Below, piece by piece: positions 670 through 59,418 of a stretch of DNA of 64,000 bases. A model generated the notes under the pieces. It had not been told where the DNA came from. It saw only the letters and a list, made by a program, of their open reading frames with translations, and searched no databases. The position numbers and the translations under genes were made by a program. The DNA comes from a virus (Duplodnaviria > Heunggongvirae > Uroviricota > Caudoviricetes), in IMG/VR virus record IMGVR_UViG_3300045988_145635. The stretch is one strand, 5' to 3'. How positions within the stretch are numbered: the first letter of the stretch is position 1; every line of letters begins with the position of its first letter.

Positions 670-1263
670 ATGATTGCAGCCGAAAAAATCAAACAGCGAA
701 AGCGCGACAACTCTCTTCGTGACCTCTGGAGAACACCTGACTGGCTGTTTTCTGCCATTCAACGTTATCTTGGAGTGACATTTGATGTTGACGTTGCCTG
801 CAACAAGGACAATGCAAAGCTGCCTAATTTCATAGGCGTTGAGCGTGATGCTTTGAAATCTGAATGGGGACAGCCAGGTACAATTGCCTTCCTCAATCCA
901 CCCTACTCCAAAATCTCCCCCTGGATTGATGCGGCTATACGTGAGCAGGCTCGCGGAGTTACAACAGTGATGCTAATTCCTCAATCCCTAGATACAAAGT
1001 GGTATGAGCGTGCAACAGAGTGTGCGAATGAGACGATTATTCTGTCTGGTGGCCGCGTAGCGTTTGTCGAGCCTGACGTCAATCTGGGTCAGGTAGAAGT
1101 AAACATCAACCCAGGTGGCAGTATGCTCGTTGTTTTTCGAGGATTCTGTCAGGACGCTGGGCACTCTATAAGCAAGATCCCTTTGGACGTCATGAAAAGT
1201 CTGGGAGGGTATGATCCTGCGAATGTGATCAGGAAAAAAAGACCATCAAAGAAGGCTGCTTAG
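670..1263 (+). CDS. Phage-type DNA N6-adenine methyltransferase (Dam-like)
   Basis: 197 aa; motif IV-like FLNPPYS; layout typical of small phage Dam-family methylases. Confidence 0.7.
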   Translation: MIAAEKIKQRKRDNSLRDLWRTPDWLFSAIQRYLGVTFDVDVACNKDNAKLPNFIGVERDALKSEWGQPGTIAFLNPPYSKISPWIDAAIREQARGVTTVMLIPQSLDTKWYERATECANETIILSGGRVAFVEPDVNLGQVEVNINPGGSMLVVFRGFCQDAGHSISKIPLDVMKSLGGYDPANVIRKKRPSKKAA

Positions 1264-1285
1264 TTTGTTCTGGCGTCTGTAATTA

Positions 1286-1342
1286 GCCTGCTTCTGTATA
1301 TATAAATAACTACATATTAATTATTAATATACGGAAGCAGGC
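1286..1342. repeat. Long palindrome, copy A (17-bp arms GCCTGCTTCTGTATATA with AT-rich centre); likely factor-independent terminator
   Basis: Near-perfect inverted repeat gcctgcttctgtatata / tatatacggaagcaggc followed by TGTTTTGT; related copies at 32642-32696 and 63945-64000. Confidence 0.6.
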
Positions 1343-1448
1343 TGTTTTGTATCAGAGACTCCAGACCTGAACATCACTACAGAATCCACTAGAACCCCTT
1401 CCCAGACGCTTTAAAATCGATTTTATGAACCACTTTAAGGAAACCAAC

Positions 1449-1676
1449 ATGTCATACCCGACTAATGTCGTTGCGCTCGTAGAGAGCGATTTTCTGGCCC
1501 AGGCTCGTGAAATGATGAAAGATCGTGAGCAGGCTTTCAACTTGTACGAATGGGCAATTAAGTGCTTGCATCTTGGCGAGCATCGCGAACTTGTTGAACA
1601 GCTTTTAGGTGAGTTGATCAATGAGGTGTTTGCCTTGAATGTTCAACTACATGGTAGAGAAAATAATCAATCATAA
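1449..1676 (+). CDS. Hypothetical small protein
   Basis: ORF with AAGGAAACC spacer before ATG at 1449; no motif recognised. Confidence 0.4.
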   Translation: MSYPTNVVALVESDFLAQAREMMKDREQAFNLYEWAIKCLHLGEHRELVEQLLGELINEVFALNVQLHGRENNQS

Positions 1677-2264
1677 TGATAGATAAGTACAAACTATTCA
1701 TAAAGTGAATTGTAAGTGCTAAGATCTGATAGTTTCCAGTCGTAGACTGGAGACTCGACCTGATGGGTGGGGGTAAGCGTCACTGGCGTCAGGTTTAAAA
1801 AAAGCTCACTACCAGCGTAGAACTGGTGCCGTTTAGGTGTCGGGGAAGGGGGAACCAAAGTGAGCGGAGACAAGGGTCACTTTATGATTGTCGAGTCTGG
1901 GGTGTTTCGAGAGGTTGAATCCAGTACTCCCCTTCATAAAGTGTGGGAAGATCTCGGTTCTGGGGTGCTGTCATCCATAACTTCCCAAGTCTAAGCTGGC
2001 AGTAGACTTAGACCATAACTTTTCAGGTTATGAAACGACCAGGTTGGTGAGGGATTTTTATACTCACCTCCCTGGGAGAGTATTACCTGAAAAGACAACC
2101 TCTCACTTCGTTCGAGGTGAACTTCACTCACTTCGTTCGTTCAGTTCAGGTTTATAAAAACCTGTTCTGGGAAGTAATTTGTTTATTTTAATAATTATTA
2201 ACACGCACGCGTGTGCGCACGCGCGAGGAAAAAAATCGGCGCGGCGCTTGATTCAGGAGTTTAT

Positions 2265-2858
2265 ATGACGACGAAGACACCAGCCCGATCGCAAGAAAAA
2301 ACTCGCAAAAAAGCCAAAAACAAAAATTCTCCCCGCACCAATTCCACAACGCCTGTCGTAGAGTTCAATCCCCAGCTTAAAACCGTGAAAATCTTCAGTG
2401 ATGGCTCTTGCCTTAAAAATCCGGGTGGCCCGGGCGGTTACGGTATAGTTCTCCAGTATCGTGGTGAGGAACGCGAGTTCTCAGATGGTTTTCATAGCAC
2501 CACCAATAACCGCATGGAGATGATGGGGGCACTTATCGGGCTGGAGCGTTTGAAATATCCATGCAACGTTATTTTGCACTCTGATAGCCAGTATCTGAAA
2601 AACGGCATGACACAGTGGATGAAATGGTGGAAACGCAATGGATGGATGACTTCTGACAAAAAACCGGTAAAGAATGTTGATCTGTGGAAGCGTCTGGATG
2701 AGGCCGCAAGTCGACATAATGTTCGCTGGAAGTGGGTTAAAGGTCACGCCGGGCATCGTGAAAATGAAATATGTGATCGACTCGCGAAGATCGCAGCTTT
2801 TTCCGCAGCAGATATGCCTCACAAGAAAGATATTGGTTTTGTTTACAACAAGCAGTAA
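2265..2858 (+). CDS. rnhA: Ribonuclease HI homologue
   Basis: [59 protein letters not shown] match RNase HI active-site regions; AGGAG RBS before ATG 2265. Confidence 0.8.
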
Positions 2859-3003
2859 GTAAGTGTTTACCTATCATTTTAAATCATGTATCTTATCGGC
2901 GTCAGGATGACAATGTGTCGGTAAGACACAGTTCCAGGATGGAACGAGAAAGGCGGCTGGCAATCGCCAGCCGCAACTCTTTCTGACACTGGATGGAGTC
3001 CAC

Positions 3004-3498
3004 ATGGCACGTCAAACCTATTTCACTTCTGCAACTAAACGTCCTCGTTCACTACGTCAAATTTTGGCCGAATTATTTAGCGGTCGTGTTCTGTCACGTC
3101 TTGATGAACTAGAGACTGCCGTTCGGTTGCTGAATGAACGTTTAGATAAGCAAGCGTCAGTTGTTGCGAACGTGGGGGCGATTGTTACCTCTGGTTCTTC
3201 ACGCGAAGCGAAAAGTACACGGCCTTTAGTGAAGGAGAAAAACAACAAGGACAGTTCGAATGGAAAATTTTCAAAGAAAGAGGCTGAAACCAATGGCCTA
3301 CGTTCTCATTATAGTTTCACTGGCGACGGTAGCCGTTCCAGCCGGCCAGAGCCTTTTGATGCCGGGTTCATCCATCACCACACCTCCGTCGACGACAATT
3401 ACCACCACTCCAGTAGAGCGTCCTGTCACTCTGGATGGGATGACGGTGGATGCGATACCTCAAGTTCATCCAGTTACTCAGGATCATGCTGTGACTAA
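3004..3498 (+). CDS. Hypothetical protein (Ser-rich low-complexity C-terminus)
   Basis: ORF with GGATGGAG upstream; an overlapping alternative frame encodes a hydrophobic peptide so the true frame is uncertain. Confidence 0.3.
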   Translation: MARQTYFTSATKRPRSLRQILAELFSGRVLSRLDELETAVRLLNERLDKQASVVANVGAIVTSGSSREAKSTRPLVKEKNNKDSSNGKFSKKEAETNGLRSHYSFTGDGSRSSRPEPFDAGFIHHHTSVDDNYHHSSRASCHSGWDDGGCDTSSSSSYSGSCCD

Positions 3499-7834: not shown

Positions 7835-7895
7835 TAGGTAAATACTTACCTAATTTGTGTAAGAATGTAGTTACTAAACGATAAGAGAAAAACAC

Positions 7896-18379: not shown

Positions 18380-19200
18380 AATCACATCCTTAAATATCAA
18401 TAGGTTACAGTTGTTTATACCAATAAGAAAACAACTGAATAACAGATCAACGAAACATCAACGCTTTCACCCGATTTGGTCTAAAAAATTGACGTTTTCA
18501 CACATCACTGCTTATACCCGTAATTCTACGCAGCAGACAGCGCCACAGCGTCCAATTTTCACCACAGACGACCCAACACACTACCAACAAAAACACACGC
18601 TCAAAATCGTTCCCGTTGCGTTACATAACCATATAAACAACTTATTTTCAGGAATAACAAAACAACTAAATAACACATATGCCATTCCCAAAACAACCAA
18701 CCTCTTTATGGCAGGCTACCGAAAAGACCCACCTCTTCTTCCCAGGCTACCGGACAACCAACCTAACTTTCACAGGCAATCCGAAAACATTCATACGCGC
18801 GATACCCACGACACGCCATTACCCAAACAACGAAGAAACACCTGAACCACTGAAACCCCAACGAAGCCTGTTACCGCAAGGATTCTCTCAATCCCAAAAG
18901 ACACGAAACATAACAATCACGGGAAACGCCATTACCCAATACACGAATAACTACAAAAGCCCTTCACACACTCCAGACAAACAACTCAAACACAATAACG
19001 AAAGGAATCGCCCACCTGCCATTACTCCATACACGGAGAAGAACAATCACCAAAACGACGAGAACACCCCATAGAAGAACCACCGCAAAACGAACGAAAC
19101 CACATACACCGACAGAGAGAACAACACACCCAATTCACCAACAGAAATAGTCGCCGTATAGAACGTTCTGGAAGGAGTGAGCATTAACGCCTATAGAGAG
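18380..19200 (+). other. ORF-poor, strongly strand-asymmetric A+C-rich tract (G- and T-poor on the plus strand)
   Basis: ~0.8 kb dominated by A and C; contains short repeated CAGGCTACCG-like and CCACCTCTT motifs; six-frame ORFs here translate to low-complexity sequence. Confidence 0.55.
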
Positions 19201-20650: not shown

Positions 20651-20777
20651 TAATGTGCAAGTGGTAATTAGTCGACAGTACGACAGCCCCGCCATCCTTA
20701 CGGGGCTTTTTTTGTATTGTAAGTACATACTTACGATCATAGAATATAAAAATAACCAAAACACTACGGAGAGTGAA

Positions 20778-33446: not shown

Positions 33447-34702
33447 TGGCAATCCCGTCCTCGCTCAGTCTTGTGCAACTGCATTCTGGACAGATGAAAG
33501 TCTTCCAGTCTCCGCATCGATTTAAAGTTGTTTGTGCTGGTCGACGCTGGGGAAAATCCCGGTTGTCGATCTCCACTATTATTCGTGCGGCGGCAAAGGA
33601 AAAAAAGCAAAGGGTCTGGTATGTCGCTCCTACTTACCAGATGGCTCGTCAGATTTTGTGGGACGATCTACAGGAAGTTCTGCCCCGTAAGTGGGTTAGG
33701 AAAAAGAACGACACCACGATGACAATCGTGTTGAAGAACGGTTCGGAGATCGCCCTCAAAGGTGCTGATAAACCTGACACTCTGCGCGGCGTAGCGTTGC
33801 ATTTTGTAGTGCTTGATGAATTTCAGGATATGAAGGCTGACACCTGGTACAAGGTGTTACGACCTACTCTTTCATCGACACGCGGCGGTGCACTGATCAT
33901 TGGTACGCCAAAAGGCTTCTCGGAATTTCACAAACTGTGGACTATAGGCCAGAACGTAGAGCTGCAAAGAAAGGGACAGTGGAAGAGCTGGCAGTTTGTA
34001 ACTGCTGATTCGCCGTTTGTGCCTACGGCGGAAATTGAAGCTGCTAAGAACGATATGGACCCTAAATCGTTCGCTCAGGAGTACCTGGCCAGCTTTGAAA
34101 ATATGTCCGGGCGCGTTTACTACCCGTTCGATCGAAACGTGCATGTTAAACCGCTTCAGTTCAACCCTCGGTTGCCTATATGGGTAGGACAGGACTTCAA
34201 CATTGACCCGATGTCTTCCGTAATTTTGCAACCTCAGCCAAATGGTGAGCTATGGGCAATTGATGAATTGGTGCTCTTTTCCTCTAACACGGCAGAGGTT
34301 TGTGATGAGCTTGAGAGACGCTTCTGGCGCTGGAAATCACAGATAACGGTATTTCCAGATCCGGCAGGTGCTTATCGCCAACATGCTCGCGGGGAGTCTG
34401 ACGTCGACATATTCAAAGAGAAGGGATTCTTACGTGTCGATTATTCGAAAAAGCACCCGCCAATTGCGGATCGTGTTAATGCTGTTAACCGAATGCTGAT
34501 GACCGCATCTGGAGATATCCGGCTGTATATCGATCCGAAGTGCAAGCATTTGATTGATTCATTGGAAAAAGTCATCTACAAGCCTGGAACACGAGATATG
34601 GATAAGACAGGTGGCATTGAGCATAGTGCAGACGCATTGGGCTATCCAGTACATCGTAGGTATCCAGTCAAAAACCGTGTTATTCTTGGTGGCTCTCGAT
34701 AG
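33446..34702 (+). CDS. Terminase large subunit
   Basis: Walker A VVCAGRRWGKS, Walker B HFVVLDEF, C-terminal nuclease-like region; position before the portal. Confidence 0.75.
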   Translation: MAIPSSLSLVQLHSGQMKVFQSPHRFKVVCAGRRWGKSRLSISTIIRAAAKEKKQRVWYVAPTYQMARQILWDDLQEVLPRKWVRKKNDTTMTIVLKNGSEIALKGADKPDTLRGVALHFVVLDEFQDMKADTWYKVLRPTLSSTRGGALIIGTPKGFSEFHKLWTIGQNVELQRKGQWKSWQFVTADSPFVPTAEIEAAKNDMDPKSFAQEYLASFENMSGRVYYPFDRNVHVKPLQFNPRLPIWVGQDFNIDPMSSVILQPQPNGELWAIDELVLFSSNTAEVCDELERRFWRWKSQITVFPDPAGAYRQHARGESDVDIFKEKGFLRVDYSKKHPPIADRVNAVNRMLMTASGDIRLYIDPKCKHLIDSLEKVIYKPGTRDMDKTGGIEHSADALGYPVHRRYPVKNRVILGGSR

Positions 34703-34728
34703 GTAAGTAATTATCTAAGGTTATTCAA

Positions 34729-36303
34729 ATGGAATTGAACGACAAACAAATTAAGGATCTGGTGGTGCGACGCCACCCGGAATACGAAAAGAAAAAAGAA
34801 CATTGGGACTTCCTCGCCAGCACTTACGCTGGCGGGCGTGGTTGGTTTACAGACAATATCTTTCGTTACTTTAAAGAGGGAGATCAGGAGTTTAAGGAGC
34901 GAGTTGAGCGTGCTTATCGCTTCAACCACACTCGTGAGGTGGTAAACCTCATCAACAAATATCTCTTTAAAGAAGACATTCATAGAAATATCGAAGAGGC
35001 ACCAGAGCAGATCCGCAATTTCTGGAAACGTGCGACTCGCCAGAATGCCTCTATTGACTCATTTATGGCCGCTATTGATTTGCAGTCGTCTATTTACGGT
35101 CGCATATGGGTTGTTGTCGATAGCACGATGAGTGGTGATGTTGAGTCAGTAGCTGACGAGAAAAAGAAAGATGCTCGCGCCTACGCCTACTGGATTTCAC
35201 CTCAGCAAATGCTGGATGTGGCATGGGACGACGACGGGAATATGTTATGGGCGTTAATTGTGGAAGTCGCTCGCGATGACGCAGATCCTTTTACTTCTAC
35301 AGGTCAGGAATACCAACGTTATCGTCTGTGGACACAAAACGAGTGGTATCTGTTCCGTGAGGAAGTGAAGAAGGGGGCTGGTGGAGCAGGTCGTCGTCAG
35401 GCAAAAGTTATTTTAGAGGACAGCGGCGCGCATAATCTCGGCGTAGTTCCTGTGTTTCCTGTTGATTGTATTGGAGAAAGTGAATCACCGTATTTCAGCC
35501 CATCGTTGATCGATGATATCGCTTATCTTGATCGTGCGGTTGCAAACTATCTGTCAAACCTTGATGCCATTATTCAGGATCAGACATTTAGCCAGTTGGC
35601 TATACCGGTACAGTCGCTTTTACCTGGTGATGAAAACCACACTAAAGTGCTTGAAATGGGCACAAAGCGAGTCTTCACCTACGATTCTGAAGGTGGAAAC
35701 CAGCCGTTTTATCTGTCACCAGACCCGAAACAAGCTCAGATGATCATCACTACGATTAAGACGGTGATTAACGAAATCTACCATTCAGTTGGTGTAGCTG
35801 GTGAGCGAACGAAGCAGGACAACGCACAGGGAATCGATAATTCATCTGGTGCCGCAAAAATGTATGACTTCCAGCGTGTAAATAGCTTGCTTGTCACAAA
35901 AGCAGAGCGTCTGGAAAGGGCTGAACGCCAAATCATGCTACTGGTTGCGAAATGGATGGGGGTAGATCTGGACGAAGACCACTCTTTAATTGCGTATCCA
36001 GAAAGTTTCGATATTCGTGGCCTTACTGATGAATTTTCTGTTGCCGAGAAACTGTCATTACTTCAGGCACCGGACTCTGTACGTCGTCACCAGATGGAAA
36101 TGCTTATTGAGAAGATTTTCCCGAACATTACTGAGGCGATGAAAAAGGAATTTGATAAAGATCTCTTGAATTTTCCTCCAAAAAATGATCTAAATACCCT
36201 TGAAAATAAGTCAGTACTTACTTATGATCGTGGTGCAGCCCAAGAAAGCGGGCAAGATCAACCCCGAGGGAATGGGGACTCATCTACTCAAGAGAACGAG
36301 TGA
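34729..36303 (+). CDS. Portal protein
   Basis: 524 aa, position between terminase and scaffold; motif B site upstream. Confidence 0.7.
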   Translation: MELNDKQIKDLVVRRHPEYEKKKEHWDFLASTYAGGRGWFTDNIFRYFKEGDQEFKERVERAYRFNHTREVVNLINKYLFKEDIHRNIEEAPEQIRNFWKRATRQNASIDSFMAAIDLQSSIYGRIWVVVDSTMSGDVESVADEKKKDARAYAYWISPQQMLDVAWDDDGNMLWALIVEVARDDADPFTSTGQEYQRYRLWTQNEWYLFREEVKKGAGGAGRRQAKVILEDSGAHNLGVVPVFPVDCIGESESPYFSPSLIDDIAYLDRAVANYLSNLDAIIQDQTFSQLAIPVQSLLPGDENHTKVLEMGTKRVFTYDSEGGNQPFYLSPDPKQAQMIITTIKTVINEIYHSVGVAGERTKQDNAQGIDNSSGAAKMYDFQRVNSLLVTKAERLERAERQIMLLVAKWMGVDLDEDHSLIAYPESFDIRGLTDEFSVAEKLSLLQAPDSVRRHQMEMLIEKIFPNITEAMKKEFDKDLLNFPPKNDLNTLENKSVLTYDRGAAQESGQDQPRGNGDSSTQENE

Positions 36304-39586: not shown

Positions 39587-40419
39587 TGGCGCAGATCGAC
39601 TCGTATCGTAGCGGTGAAGCTGTTTCCCTTTCATTTGCCTTCAACGTGCTGGATATCGAATCTGCTACCTACACAGTAAAGGACAGCACCGGGGCTATTC
39701 TCGTTGATGGCGAGCCGCTAGAAATTACCAGCGGTCAAATGTCGATTCCGGTTGTCGTGTCGGCTGAATATAACCAGCTCTCTGAGAAAGAACGCGATCT
39801 GCGGTACGTCATTGTGAAGGCTGTTGCATCGGGTCTGACGCATGAAGAGCGGCAAATGTATGTTCTGCTGAATAGTTTTGAACTGTCGATACCAGAACAG
39901 TCGTTTGCAACTGTCGCTGATGCTCAAATGCAGGCGATCGATATGCTGAATGGGGACACTTTGCTGTCGGATGGTGAAGGCTTAATGCGCAAGCGTCTCA
40001 TTGAGGCTACCAGACGAATTAAAACTTTACCGTTCTCAATCCGCAAAATTCTACGTATCGACTTTGACCGATACGATCGCCCTCAAAATATGCTGAATGT
40101 GTATGACATTCCGTGGGGAGCAGATGGAGCGTACCGGCATGATTTAGTCGATTGGGAAAAGATGACGCAGGAGAAGTTTGAAGAGTTCCCTGACTACTTC
40201 AAAGAAGCGTTGATGCTTGCCGTTGTCAACGAAGCGTGTGAGATCGCAAATGGCAATGATGTTGCCGCAGCACGAGAGGATGGCATTTTGTCAGAGTCCA
40301 TCGGTGAAACAACCAACATGTACCGTACCGGTAAAGCCGCAAGCGTGCATGTGGCTCGCAGTACCTGGCGCTTGCTGGTCAGTTACATCAACAACCGTAT
40401 GATTGTTCGCCGTGCGTAA
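39586..40419 (+). CDS. Virion morphogenesis protein (head-tail connector region)
   Basis: Position; start overlaps the upstream stop. Confidence 0.45.
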   Translation: MAQIDSYRSGEAVSLSFAFNVLDIESATYTVKDSTGAILVDGEPLEITSGQMSIPVVVSAEYNQLSEKERDLRYVIVKAVASGLTHEERQMYVLLNSFELSIPEQSFATVADAQMQAIDMLNGDTLLSDGEGLMRKRLIEATRRIKTLPFSIRKILRIDFDRYDRPQNMLNVYDIPWGADGAYRHDLVDWEKMTQEKFEEFPDYFKEALMLAVVNEACEIANGNDVAAAREDGILSESIGETTNMYRTGKAASVHVARSTWRLLVSYINNRMIVRRA

Positions 40420-40498
40420 CGCCAGTCGCATTATTTACTTTTGGTCTAAAGGGTTTTTGGCCAGTAATGAGAGCGACCGACAACAACAGGGAGAGAGC

Positions 40499-40843
40499 AT
40501 GAATATTTCATGGCAAACAGAAATTGCGATCTACCGCTTTGGCGCAAAGAACGTTTACGGTGAGGCGCAATTACAATTCGTCAGGAAGACGAATGTCGGC
40601 GTGGTTAAGTTCGAACAGAGTAATGAGAAATCGTCAGTTCGTGCTGATAGCTCTGGTAGTCGTGGTAAGGCGAGTCTGGAGCTGTTTGATGCTGTGTTAG
40701 TTGTCCCTTTAGAAGCGGCTGTACAACTTGATGATGTACTGATCCTTGAAGGTCAAAAATTAAAGGTGTCCAGTGTTCATCGCCGCTGGGGGCTACGAGG
40801 AAGACCTGGGCATCTTGAAGTAGGGGCGAATATATGGGTCTGA
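40499..40843 (+). CDS. Head-tail joining protein (putative)
   Basis: AGGGAGAGAG RBS; position. Confidence 0.4.
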   Translation: MNISWQTEIAIYRFGAKNVYGEAQLQFVRKTNVGVVKFEQSNEKSSVRADSSGSRGKASLELFDAVLVVPLEAAVQLDDVLILEGQKLKVSSVHRRWGLRGRPGHLEVGANIWV

Positions 40844-41692: not shown

Positions 41693-41766
41693 GTTAATCG
41701 GTAAGTATATACTTACTATTAGCGCAATGAATGCGTAGAATTAACGGAAAAAGGAGTTTTCCATCA

Positions 41767-55097: not shown

Positions 55098-55190
55098 TGG
55101 TGGAAAAAAAATTTTATATCGGTAAAAATAGGTAAGTATTTACTTAATGGCGGGCAAGGATAACCCGCCAAATCAAGGAGCATATTCAAC

Positions 55191-59216: not shown

Positions 59217-59418
59217 TTTAGACATTATTTATATGGCTGTGAGGTTTAAAATGCGATCTCACAGCCGCAATCATAGGGATATATTAGTGAGTTACTAGAT
59301 ACGAATTTGAACAGCCGTTAAACGGTATATACATAGATAGGTAAGTACACACCTACAACAAAAGGGTGAAATGTGATATAAATCCGCCATCCCGATTTGA
59401 CTTTTCATGGAGGAAAAC

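Follow-up and report, generated by a model that had tools for sequence, protein, structure and literature searches.

A large structured RNA conserved in SSU5-like phage-plasmids of Enterobacteriaceae

The IMG/VR virus record IMGVR_UViG_3300045988_145635, of which a stretch of 64,000 nucleotides (nt) was analysed (hereafter the window), carries on its plus strand, between positions 1731 and about 2175, a new large structured RNA that matches no described family. The segment has the general features of a structured non-coding RNA gene: its own promoter, compensatory base pairs, and a transcript, the latter seen at the gene level with unmapped ends. We lean slightly towards the view that it is a stand-alone gene for a stable, lineage-specific and highly structured RNA of ~440 nt, which acts in trans via a conserved partner. 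A sequence-only reading of the window had marked the whole gap 1677–2264 as a candidate non-coding RNA or control region, and this proposal is supported by nucleotide conservation, compensatory base-pair changes and published RNA-seq data; the transcript signal and the conservation whose joint absence was to count against it are both present. The region stands out from chance because of this comparison (conservation, fold energy and covariation), and not because of the sequence motifs themselves. The proposal held less well in treating the gap as one unit, which mixes a promoter, the RNA, a conserved flank made of an AT-rich segment and a GC tract, and the leader of the downstream RNase HI gene, rnhA.

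Conservation and secondary structure of the RNA

Region 1300–2900 of the window is 98–99% identical to the Escherichia phages CMS-2020a, PhiR41_1 and Cyrano, ~81% identical to the Salmonella phage SSU5 and ~78% identical to Klebsiella phage-plasmids. Based on these matches, the window was assigned to an SSU5-like phage-plasmid. The studied gap is located between a 75-amino-acid (aa) open reading frame (ORF; 1449–1676) and the RNase HI gene (2265–2858), and in annotated records it is either left empty or filled with short hypothetical ORFs. A blastn search with the 588-nt region matched 687 plasmids of PLSDB, among them the S. Typhi CT18 plasmid pHCM2, as well as 12 phage records. The element is present in 232 of 5,426 complete E. 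coli genomes (~4%), nearly always on ~110-kb plasmids; among the 30 records listed of 233 matched, no RefSeq/PGAP features lie under the match. In a multiple alignment with ten relatives, the core (~1776–2170) is 92–100% identical in 50-nt windows to the copies from Salmonella, Klebsiella, Enterobacter and Cronobacter sakazakii, and the flanking small ORF and rnhA are 64–88% identical. A divergent clade of the Cronobacter sp. JZ38 type is 55–68% identical.

This clade and three further divergent members (L159, L161 and L163) were recovered via the linked small protein, and L161 has the most divergent RNA. Searches with this protein gave nothing below 57% identity, and all matches belong to the same element family. 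Scanning one genome per species for a 21-mer pattern revealed three real relatives (two in Kluyvera and one truncated copy in Buttiauxella), with seven further matches that are close to the chance expectation. A structure-block pattern built to exclude the main clade retrieved from IMG/VR solely the known clades and chance matches. Judging by these sequence searches, the RNA is confined to SSU5-like phage-plasmids of Enterobacteriaceae. A search of the window with nhmmer, the CA-rich tract at 18.4–19.2 kb included, found no paralogue of the RNA, and a literature search found no description of it. The copy in a Buttiauxella gaviniae contig (L092, 4817–5312) has its first ~100 nt swapped for unrelated sequence and lacks the small ORF; it looks decayed or recombined.

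The 445-nt plus strand folds with a free energy of -166.9 kcal/mol (z = -4.5), 28 kcal/mol better than the minus strand. For 28 non-identical copies RNAalifold predicts 100 pairs, in which 99% of cells are paired and 35 of which have changes on both sides, compared with 17.7 ± 2.8 after column shuffles and 2–5 when the partners are slid by 1–3 columns. The covariation score is 0.247, versus at most 0.063 in controls. A set of 15 sequences that includes divergent members yields 52 double-change pairs (24.7 ± 3.1 in shuffles and 10–18 in slid controls). Eleven pairs are mostly G-U on the plus strand and would be A-C on the minus strand; because of these many G-U pairs the RNA was placed on the plus strand. 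Paired and unpaired positions are both nearly invariant, including two loops with the same 13-nt sequence.

The plus-strand core (~440 nt, 1731–2175), delimited by conservation, covariation and an RNA-seq signal over 1860–1994, contains several domains. Following a 5'-terminal hairpin, a G-rich helix at 1758–1794 pairs ACCUGAUGGGUGGGG with CGUCACUGGCGUCAGGU (13 pairs, four of them double-change, 100% paired), and its GGGUGG.GG and CUGGC stretches are unchanged even in L161. The next domain (1805–1864) holds the tract GGGGAAGGGGGAACC and is closed by a CUCACU/AGUGAG helix, in which three of six pairs are double-change; in L161 it contains large insertions. The central multi-helix domain (1873–2088) is formed by helices 1878–1886/1935–1943, 1944–1950/1981–1987, 1963–1976, 1989–2013, 2014–2032 and 2039–2075. 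In helix 1989–2013, double changes affect 5/10 pairs in the 28-copy set and 8/10 in the 15-sequence set. A long-range helix joins GAGAGGUUG (1909–1917) to its 9-nt perfect complement CAACCUCUC (2096–2104); it is 91.8% paired in the 15 diverse sequences, has three double-change pairs and competes with an invariant local hairpin, 2099–2102/2114–2117. The 3' domain (2096–2148) starts with this partner strand and continues with two adjacent hairpins, each displaying CUCACUUCGUUCG (2102–2114 and 2127–2139); half of the six pairs of helix 2118–2123/2143–2148 are double-change. The element ends with a last hairpin (2142–2153/2158–2169) and the conserved UCUGGGAAG at 2166–2174, together spanning 2142–2174, after which strong conservation stops.

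The repeats pointed out in the sequence-only reading fall within this fold. The duplicated motif TCTGGGGTG is located at 1896 and 1959, and the direct repeat CACTTCGTTCG at 2104 and 2129 is a part of the exact 13-mer CTCACTTCGTTCG that starts at 2102 and 2127. Within the RNA family, ACAACCTCTCACTNCGTTCGAGG is the block that varies least. An exact copy of this 23-nt block (ACAACCTCTCACTACGTTCGAGG) was found in an unrelated IMG/VR phage (L029, 6284–6340; also in L020 and L056), inside a 442-aa replication-organizer-like ORF, beside TCAGTGAG repeats and an AT-rich stretch, and the copy is followed by ACGTGCGCGCACGAAAGGAA. The chance expectation for such a match is ~0.01 by a rough estimate.

This last block is one of several features that could point to a function at the DNA level, such as a signal for single-strand initiation or a site for recombination, resolution or packaging, since in the unrelated phage contig ACAACCTCTCACTNCGTTCGAGG lies beside iteron-like repeats in a replication-organizer-like gene. 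The flank contains an AT-rich segment and a Z-DNA-prone tract of 25 nt, and a palindromic motif resembling a protein site lies upstream. We nevertheless regard a DNA site as very unlikely: covariation extends to ~15 helices over 440 nt, both a promoter and an RNA-seq signal are present, and a symmetric duplex or cruciform is disfavoured because the eleven plus-strand G-U positions form A-C mismatches on the other strand. A fold of plus-strand single-stranded DNA is a remote formal option.

Comparison with known RNA families by cmscan (region 1200–3100, Rfam 15 with 4,227 families, E ≤10) yielded solely chance matches far below threshold, such as a microRNA model at the terminator hairpin at 1280–1348 and HCV_SL2531 on the GC tract, with 21 bits against a gathering score of 56. 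The families without a match include RNAI, C4, GOLLD, ROOL, OLE, HEARO, 6S, RNase P, group I and II introns, and riboswitches. ARAGORN found no tRNA or tmRNA in the whole window. Like GOLLD and ROOL (and also OLE and raiA), the RNA is several hundred nucleotides long, non-coding and borne by a mobile element or phage, and it combines covarying helices with conserved loops. It differs from these RNAs in that it does not match their Rfam models, occurs in Enterobacteriaceae in a single element lineage, and adjoins no tRNA arrays.

Three other classes were considered and rejected. Type III toxin-antitoxin RNAs consist of tandem 34–45-nt repeats upstream of an endoribonuclease toxin gene; here the repeats are dispersed and two-copy, with no tandem array, and the downstream genes vary. 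For a CsrA sponge, inspection by eye gave one or two plausible GGA loop sites. The RNA shares with the immunity RNAs of P1/P7 (c4), P4 (CI) and N15 (CB) that it is a phage-plasmid RNA of the lysogenic or plasmid state, with a level comparable to that of the repressor. However, those RNAs have a length of 70–80 nt, arise by cleavage of a precursor and pair with sites just downstream within the operon that encodes them, whereas the RNA described here has ~440 nt. An immunity RNA of the P1 c4 or P4 CI type was rejected, as no complementary target above chance was found in the window and no Rfam family matched.

Promoter, coding potential and expression in the carrier state

An extended -10 promoter was identified from the alignment at 1717–1725 of the plus strand, with TG at 1717–1718, one intervening base, and TAAGAT at 1720–1725. 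The TAnnnT hexamer occupies the same alignment column in every clade and is preceded by TG in most of them; its variants across clades are TAAAAT, TAGAAT, TAATAT, TAACAT, TAAACT and TATGAT. A consensus scan calls the promoter in SSU5 (TTTAAA-17-TAAAAT with TG) and in L161. From this position we infer that transcription starts at ~1731–1733. The RNA would then begin with a plus-strand hairpin at 1731–1755 (-14.8 kcal/mol, z = -5.7). The hairpin TCCAGTC-GTA-GACTGGA, already noticed on first inspection, starts at 1735 and forms the centre of this 25-nt stem-loop. The 5' hairpin begins 7–9 bases downstream of the -10 element, and its sequence differs between lineages. Twelve lineage variants were folded; 11 give a clear hairpin and the Cronobacter JZ38-type variant a weak one (z = -1.3). 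We suggest that the hairpin shields the 5' end of the RNA.

Upstream of the promoter, the alignment with SSU5 and its relatives revealed at 1682–1695 a degenerate copy, GATAAGTACAAACT, of the motif GGTAAGTACTTACC. In SSU5 and other relatives the corresponding position holds GGTAAGTACTTACC as a perfect palindrome, and in L161 it overlaps the -35 element. Palindromic motifs near GGTAAGTAnTTACC have 34 matches in the window at up to two mismatches, versus 11.8 expected. By its sequence and position, the upstream palindrome is probably an operator or another promoter-associated site of a phage-plasmid regulator. Further copies were observed at 642–655, 2859–2871, 7837–7850, 20718–20734, 34702–34715, 36209–36222, 41700–41716, 55131–55144 and 59340–59353.

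The gap had been described as free of ORFs of 60 or more codons, and indeed the longest internal ORFs in 1677–2264 encode 59 aa on the minus strand and 44 aa on the plus strand. Only the rnhA frame, when extended upstream to a GTG (2211–2858), overlaps the last 54 nt of the region; the true rnhA start is the ATG at 2265, behind AGGAG at 2255–2259. The 44-codon ORF (1860–1994), which starts with GTG and has no evident ribosome-binding site, lies inside the RNA core and is annotated as CYRAN_81 in phage Cyrano (OV696614). It was named an expressed 'moron' (PMC9928086), which would favour a region encoding small proteins such as the 44-aa CYRAN_81 product. We consider this highly implausible. The 44-codon frame is interrupted by stops in L003 and L163 and by frameshifts in L009 and L159, and it has no start codon in the JZ38-type clade; a 37-codon ORF (2044–2157) likewise fails in several lineages by stops, frameshifts or a missing start. 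No candidate frame is thus conserved among relatives, and the substitutions track base-pairing instead of codon position. A protein-coding gene was therefore rejected.

The annotation of CYRAN_81 provides a measure of expression. Cyrano, the phage-plasmid carried by E. coli LF82, is 97% identical over the 588-nt region, and CYRAN_81 maps within the core. In the LF82 lysogen it is listed 12-fold above the local background (Table 1 in PMC9928086). The conditions in S1 Table of the same study comprise LB, DMEM and macrophage, and the log2 values for CYRAN_81 are 6.8/6.9 in overnight LB (BLB), 9.3/9.0 in B1, 6.9/6.9 in B6, 9.0/8.2 in MB1 and 10.35/10.3 in MB6 (PMC9928086). The neighbouring genes have log2 values of 3.1–5.8 (the small ORF, CYRAN_80) and 2.6–5.0 (RNase HI, CYRAN_82) (PMC9928086). 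From these values, the core reads ~12–40 times above both neighbours and approximately at the level of the putative repressor CYRAN_45; the small ORF is at the background level in the LF82 lysogen. The RNA-seq check proposed for the region is thereby answered by a discrete signal over the core in published data. In the same study CYRAN_40 was flagged as a 'moron' merely by overlap with tRNA genes (PMC9928086), which shows that stable RNAs surface as 'hypothetical proteins' in that analysis.

A candidate for a further abundant RNA is CYRAN_43, located beside the integrase and the repressor, outside the window (L167 1769–2323; Cyrano 40268–40822). In the LF82 lysogen this 'hypothetical protein' exceeds the background 723-fold, and it has no Rfam match at E ≤0.01.

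Transcript end, downstream genes and mode of action

The core is followed by an AT-rich spacer of variable sequence (2176–2200) and by an alternating purine-pyrimidine GC tract (2201–2225), which ends in GCGCGAGG (2221–2228) and leads into a run of seven A residues (2229–2235), so that the tract and the A-run together span 2201–2235. The 25-nt Z-DNA-prone tract is the longest of its kind in the 64-kb window, the next having 15 nt, and it includes the GC-rich palindrome ACGCACGCGTGTGCG at 2203 that had been reported just before the rnhA start. The spacer, the GC tract and the A-run follow the core in all clades, whichever gene comes next, and GCGCGAGG with the A-run lies ~500 nt from the predicted start in every clade. 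The plus-strand leader of rnhA (2236–2264) contains a GC hairpin partner, TCGGCGCGGCGC (2236–2247), and the ribosome-binding site AGGAG (2255–2259). In SSU5 the minus strand of this leader resembles a terminator (a hairpin and T7). In the aligned loci the leader is present with rnhA and absent where another gene follows.

Among the 126 loci with enough downstream sequence, the gene after the RNA is rnhA in 99 (79%), a Tad2-like gene in nine and another gene in 18. The tie to RNase HI implied when the region was described as lying upstream of this gene is therefore incidental, as 27 of the 126 loci carry a non-rnhA gene downstream and retain an intact RNA. In the rnhA-less locus L159, what comes directly after the RNA with its 3' flank is the promoter region of the next operon, which matches the one located after rnhA in the window (2857–2895). 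Because other genes replace rnhA with the RNA intact, we consider rnhA (2265–2858, plus strand, PF00075) as cargo in a variable slot outside the RNA element, and the RNA as independent of it. No promoter of rnhA's own was detected on the plus strand between the core and rnhA, and the gene is probably expressed by weak read-through. The slot resembles a cargo or anti-defence hotspot. A Tad2-like gene (PF11195, Thoeris anti-defence) replaces rnhA in divergent clades (L004, 3529–3840; L159, 4098–4412). Ahead of its PF00075 domain, the RNase HI encoded in the window has a Lys/Arg-rich N-terminal extension of ~40 aa (2265–2384), which differs in length among relatives.

We propose that the RNA, started at ~1731–1733 and protected by its terminal hairpin, ends or is processed between ~2175 and ~2240, and hence that just a few percent of transcripts would read through into the cargo gene. 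In the plasmid or prophage state it would act as an RNA and would most probably bind a partner that is conserved in all host genera, either a host machine or a core phage-plasmid protein.

Several observations weigh against a trans-acting RNA of this kind. No partner or target was found, and complementarity to the rest of the window is not above chance (16 matches of at least 11 nt versus 13.6 ± 5.7 in shuffled sequence). The small 75-aa protein is a poor candidate for the partner because it is acidic and weakly expressed while the RNA is abundant. The RNA-seq evidence consists of gene-level counts for one ORF in the core, with unconfirmed strand-specificity. Neither transcript end is mapped, and both are placed here from sequence features. 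No canonical intrinsic terminator was found on the plus strand after the core, so that the 3' end is undefined and a long leader keeps some probability. The family is narrow, covering one phage-plasmid lineage, which limits the power of the covariation analysis. In addition, many double changes in the alignment trace to one deep split between the main and the JZ38-type clade, so that the number of independent events is below what the cell counts imply.

The leader option deserves some weight, although we hold it to be improbable. The RNA would in this case be the 5' part of the cargo-slot mRNA and gate its transcription or translation in cis, by a stop or cut of most transcripts in the lysogen and read-through after induction. 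As in riboswitch and attenuator leaders, a structured 5' region lies in cis with a variable cargo and is more abundant than the downstream gene; the 12–40-fold excess of the core over rnhA is of the kind seen in attenuated leaders. The lack of a detected separate plus-strand promoter between the core and rnhA fits this scheme, as do the conserved GC-rich hairpin region and A-run between core and cargo in every clade and the hairpins into which 2120–2290 folds, directly ahead of the ribosome-binding site of rnhA. On the other hand, the downstream genes are mutually unrelated and thus offer no shared product that a leader could sense or regulate. In L159, the sole rnhA-less locus that was read closely, the next operon has a promoter of its own. 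The element is also much larger than known leaders, ~440 nt with near-invariant loops far exceeding the needs of known attenuators, and neither a known aptamer or other match to a riboswitch or leader family nor a terminator/antiterminator pair was found.

Another scheme is suggested by the conserved flank, by rnhA as a frequent neighbour and by the place of the locus among replication and nucleotide-metabolism genes; in it, the RNA would resemble RNA II and prime a second, R-loop origin. The transcript of ~500 nt would fold and enter a persistent hybrid at the GC tract, RNase HI would cut at the A-run (2229–2235), and the resulting 3' end would prime the leading strand. In ColE1 the RNA II pre-primer has 555 nt up to the origin, where RNase H cuts at an A-run. 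The element described here is likewise a plasmid-borne structured transcript of ~500 nt from the predicted start to the A-run in every clade, with a constitutive-type promoter and a GC-rich segment followed by an A-run; the RNase H involved in ColE1 has a counterpart encoded next door, and a gene for a small helical protein is adjacent. The pattern GAGG-A(5-9)-CG..GCGGC resembles the ColE1 origin GGAGCCTATGGAAAAACGCC, the RNA II strand of which reads CAGGGGGGCGGAGCCTATGGAAAAACGCC, and relative L164 shares the 11-mer GGAAAAACGCC with ColE1; a GAGG-A7-CG motif is conserved. Further points for an RNA II-like primer are that rnhA follows in 79% of loci, that the locus lies in a DNA-metabolism block, that G clusters on the non-template strand, and that Cyrano is kept at ~5.5 copies per cell.

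We find this scheme less probable still than a leader. The resemblance to ColE1, compared by sequence alone, is short, of low complexity and found post hoc, and there is no sequence homology. No match to RF00106 and no minus-strand promoter over the RNA, as would be needed for an antisense RNA I, were found; the same search detects RNA I in ColE1 with 73.8 bits. A RepA-type replicon is already present: the plasmids are typed as IncFIB, and a PhiR41_1 gene annotated as 'DNA replication protein' lies ~16 kb away. The GC skew of the whole genome is monotonic, with no turn at the locus. A G content of 0.28 is well below that of typical R-loop-prone tracts; the plus strand of the region, which had been called G-rich, does have a bias, but a modest one (G 0.264, C 0.190, GC skew +0.16). 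The high steady-state abundance in the lysogenic carrier state is unlike that of a tightly limited primer.

The upstream protein has no Rop-like fold either. Rop (Rom) is a homodimeric four-helix bundle of ~63-aa helix-hairpin subunits. The small 75-aa ORF (1449–1676, plus strand) belongs to phrog_5343, a family with no assigned function (PHROG match, E = 1.9e-52), and among the 136 testable loci it lies before the RNA in 135. Proteins of this type were found solely in SSU5-like elements of Enterobacteriaceae. The AlphaFold model consists of three helices (pLDDT 82.6); Foldseek gave no match with E <5 against PDB, and no Pfam match was found. A hand count of the sequence shows that the protein is acidic. 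As an RNA partner or Rop analogue it was rejected, based on its lack of an informative fold match, its acidity and its low expression.

More speculatively, the RNA could be the active component of a mechanism that is undescribed for phage-plasmids: a large folded carrier-state RNA that binds or acts on a core host machine, or is catalytic, and so controls the choice between the plasmid and the phage lifestyle, or else an RNA II-like pre-primer that forms with the element's own RNase HI a second origin beside the RepA replicon, setting the unusually high copy number or starting lytic replication. Such novelty is a minority expectation. SSU5-like phage-plasmids are common in clinical Enterobacteriaceae, with ~4% of complete E. 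coli genomes, pHCM2 of S. Typhi and hundreds of Klebsiella plasmids, and published work has connected them with the dissemination of resistance genes. No record annotates the most conserved non-coding element of these phage-plasmids, and at least one mis-annotates it as a hypothetical protein 'moron'. Being a 440-nt RNA that is near-invariant across host genera and present in the carrier state, it is a strong candidate for a core role in maintenance or lifestyle. In E. coli K-12 (PhiR41_1) it is tractable, as genetics, structure probing and cryo-EM are easily applied there. The downstream slot, with RNase HI, Tad2-like anti-Thoeris and other genes, may merit mining for anti-defence genes.

Other elements in the window

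The locus lies within a block of DNA-metabolism genes (replication and nucleotide metabolism). After the Dam methylase gene, positions 1285–1349 contain a hairpin with an AT-rich loop, GCCTGCTTC...GAAGCAGGC, followed by TGTTTT, which is probably the terminator of that gene; the weak Rfam microRNA matches at this hairpin were judged spurious. Downstream of rnhA, the 5' untranslated region of the next operon (ORF 3004–3498, phrog_10411) forms at 2900–2945 two hairpins, GUCAGGAUGAC and GUUCCAGGAUGGAAC, in which the loop reads AGGAU. Both look like CsrA binding sites, and a weak Rfam match to CsrB (E = 0.05) was obtained. The CA-rich tract at 18400–19200 (A 0.40, C 0.30, GC skew -0.38) contains repeated GCCATTACCCAA-like motifs, and its sequence is unrelated to the RNA.

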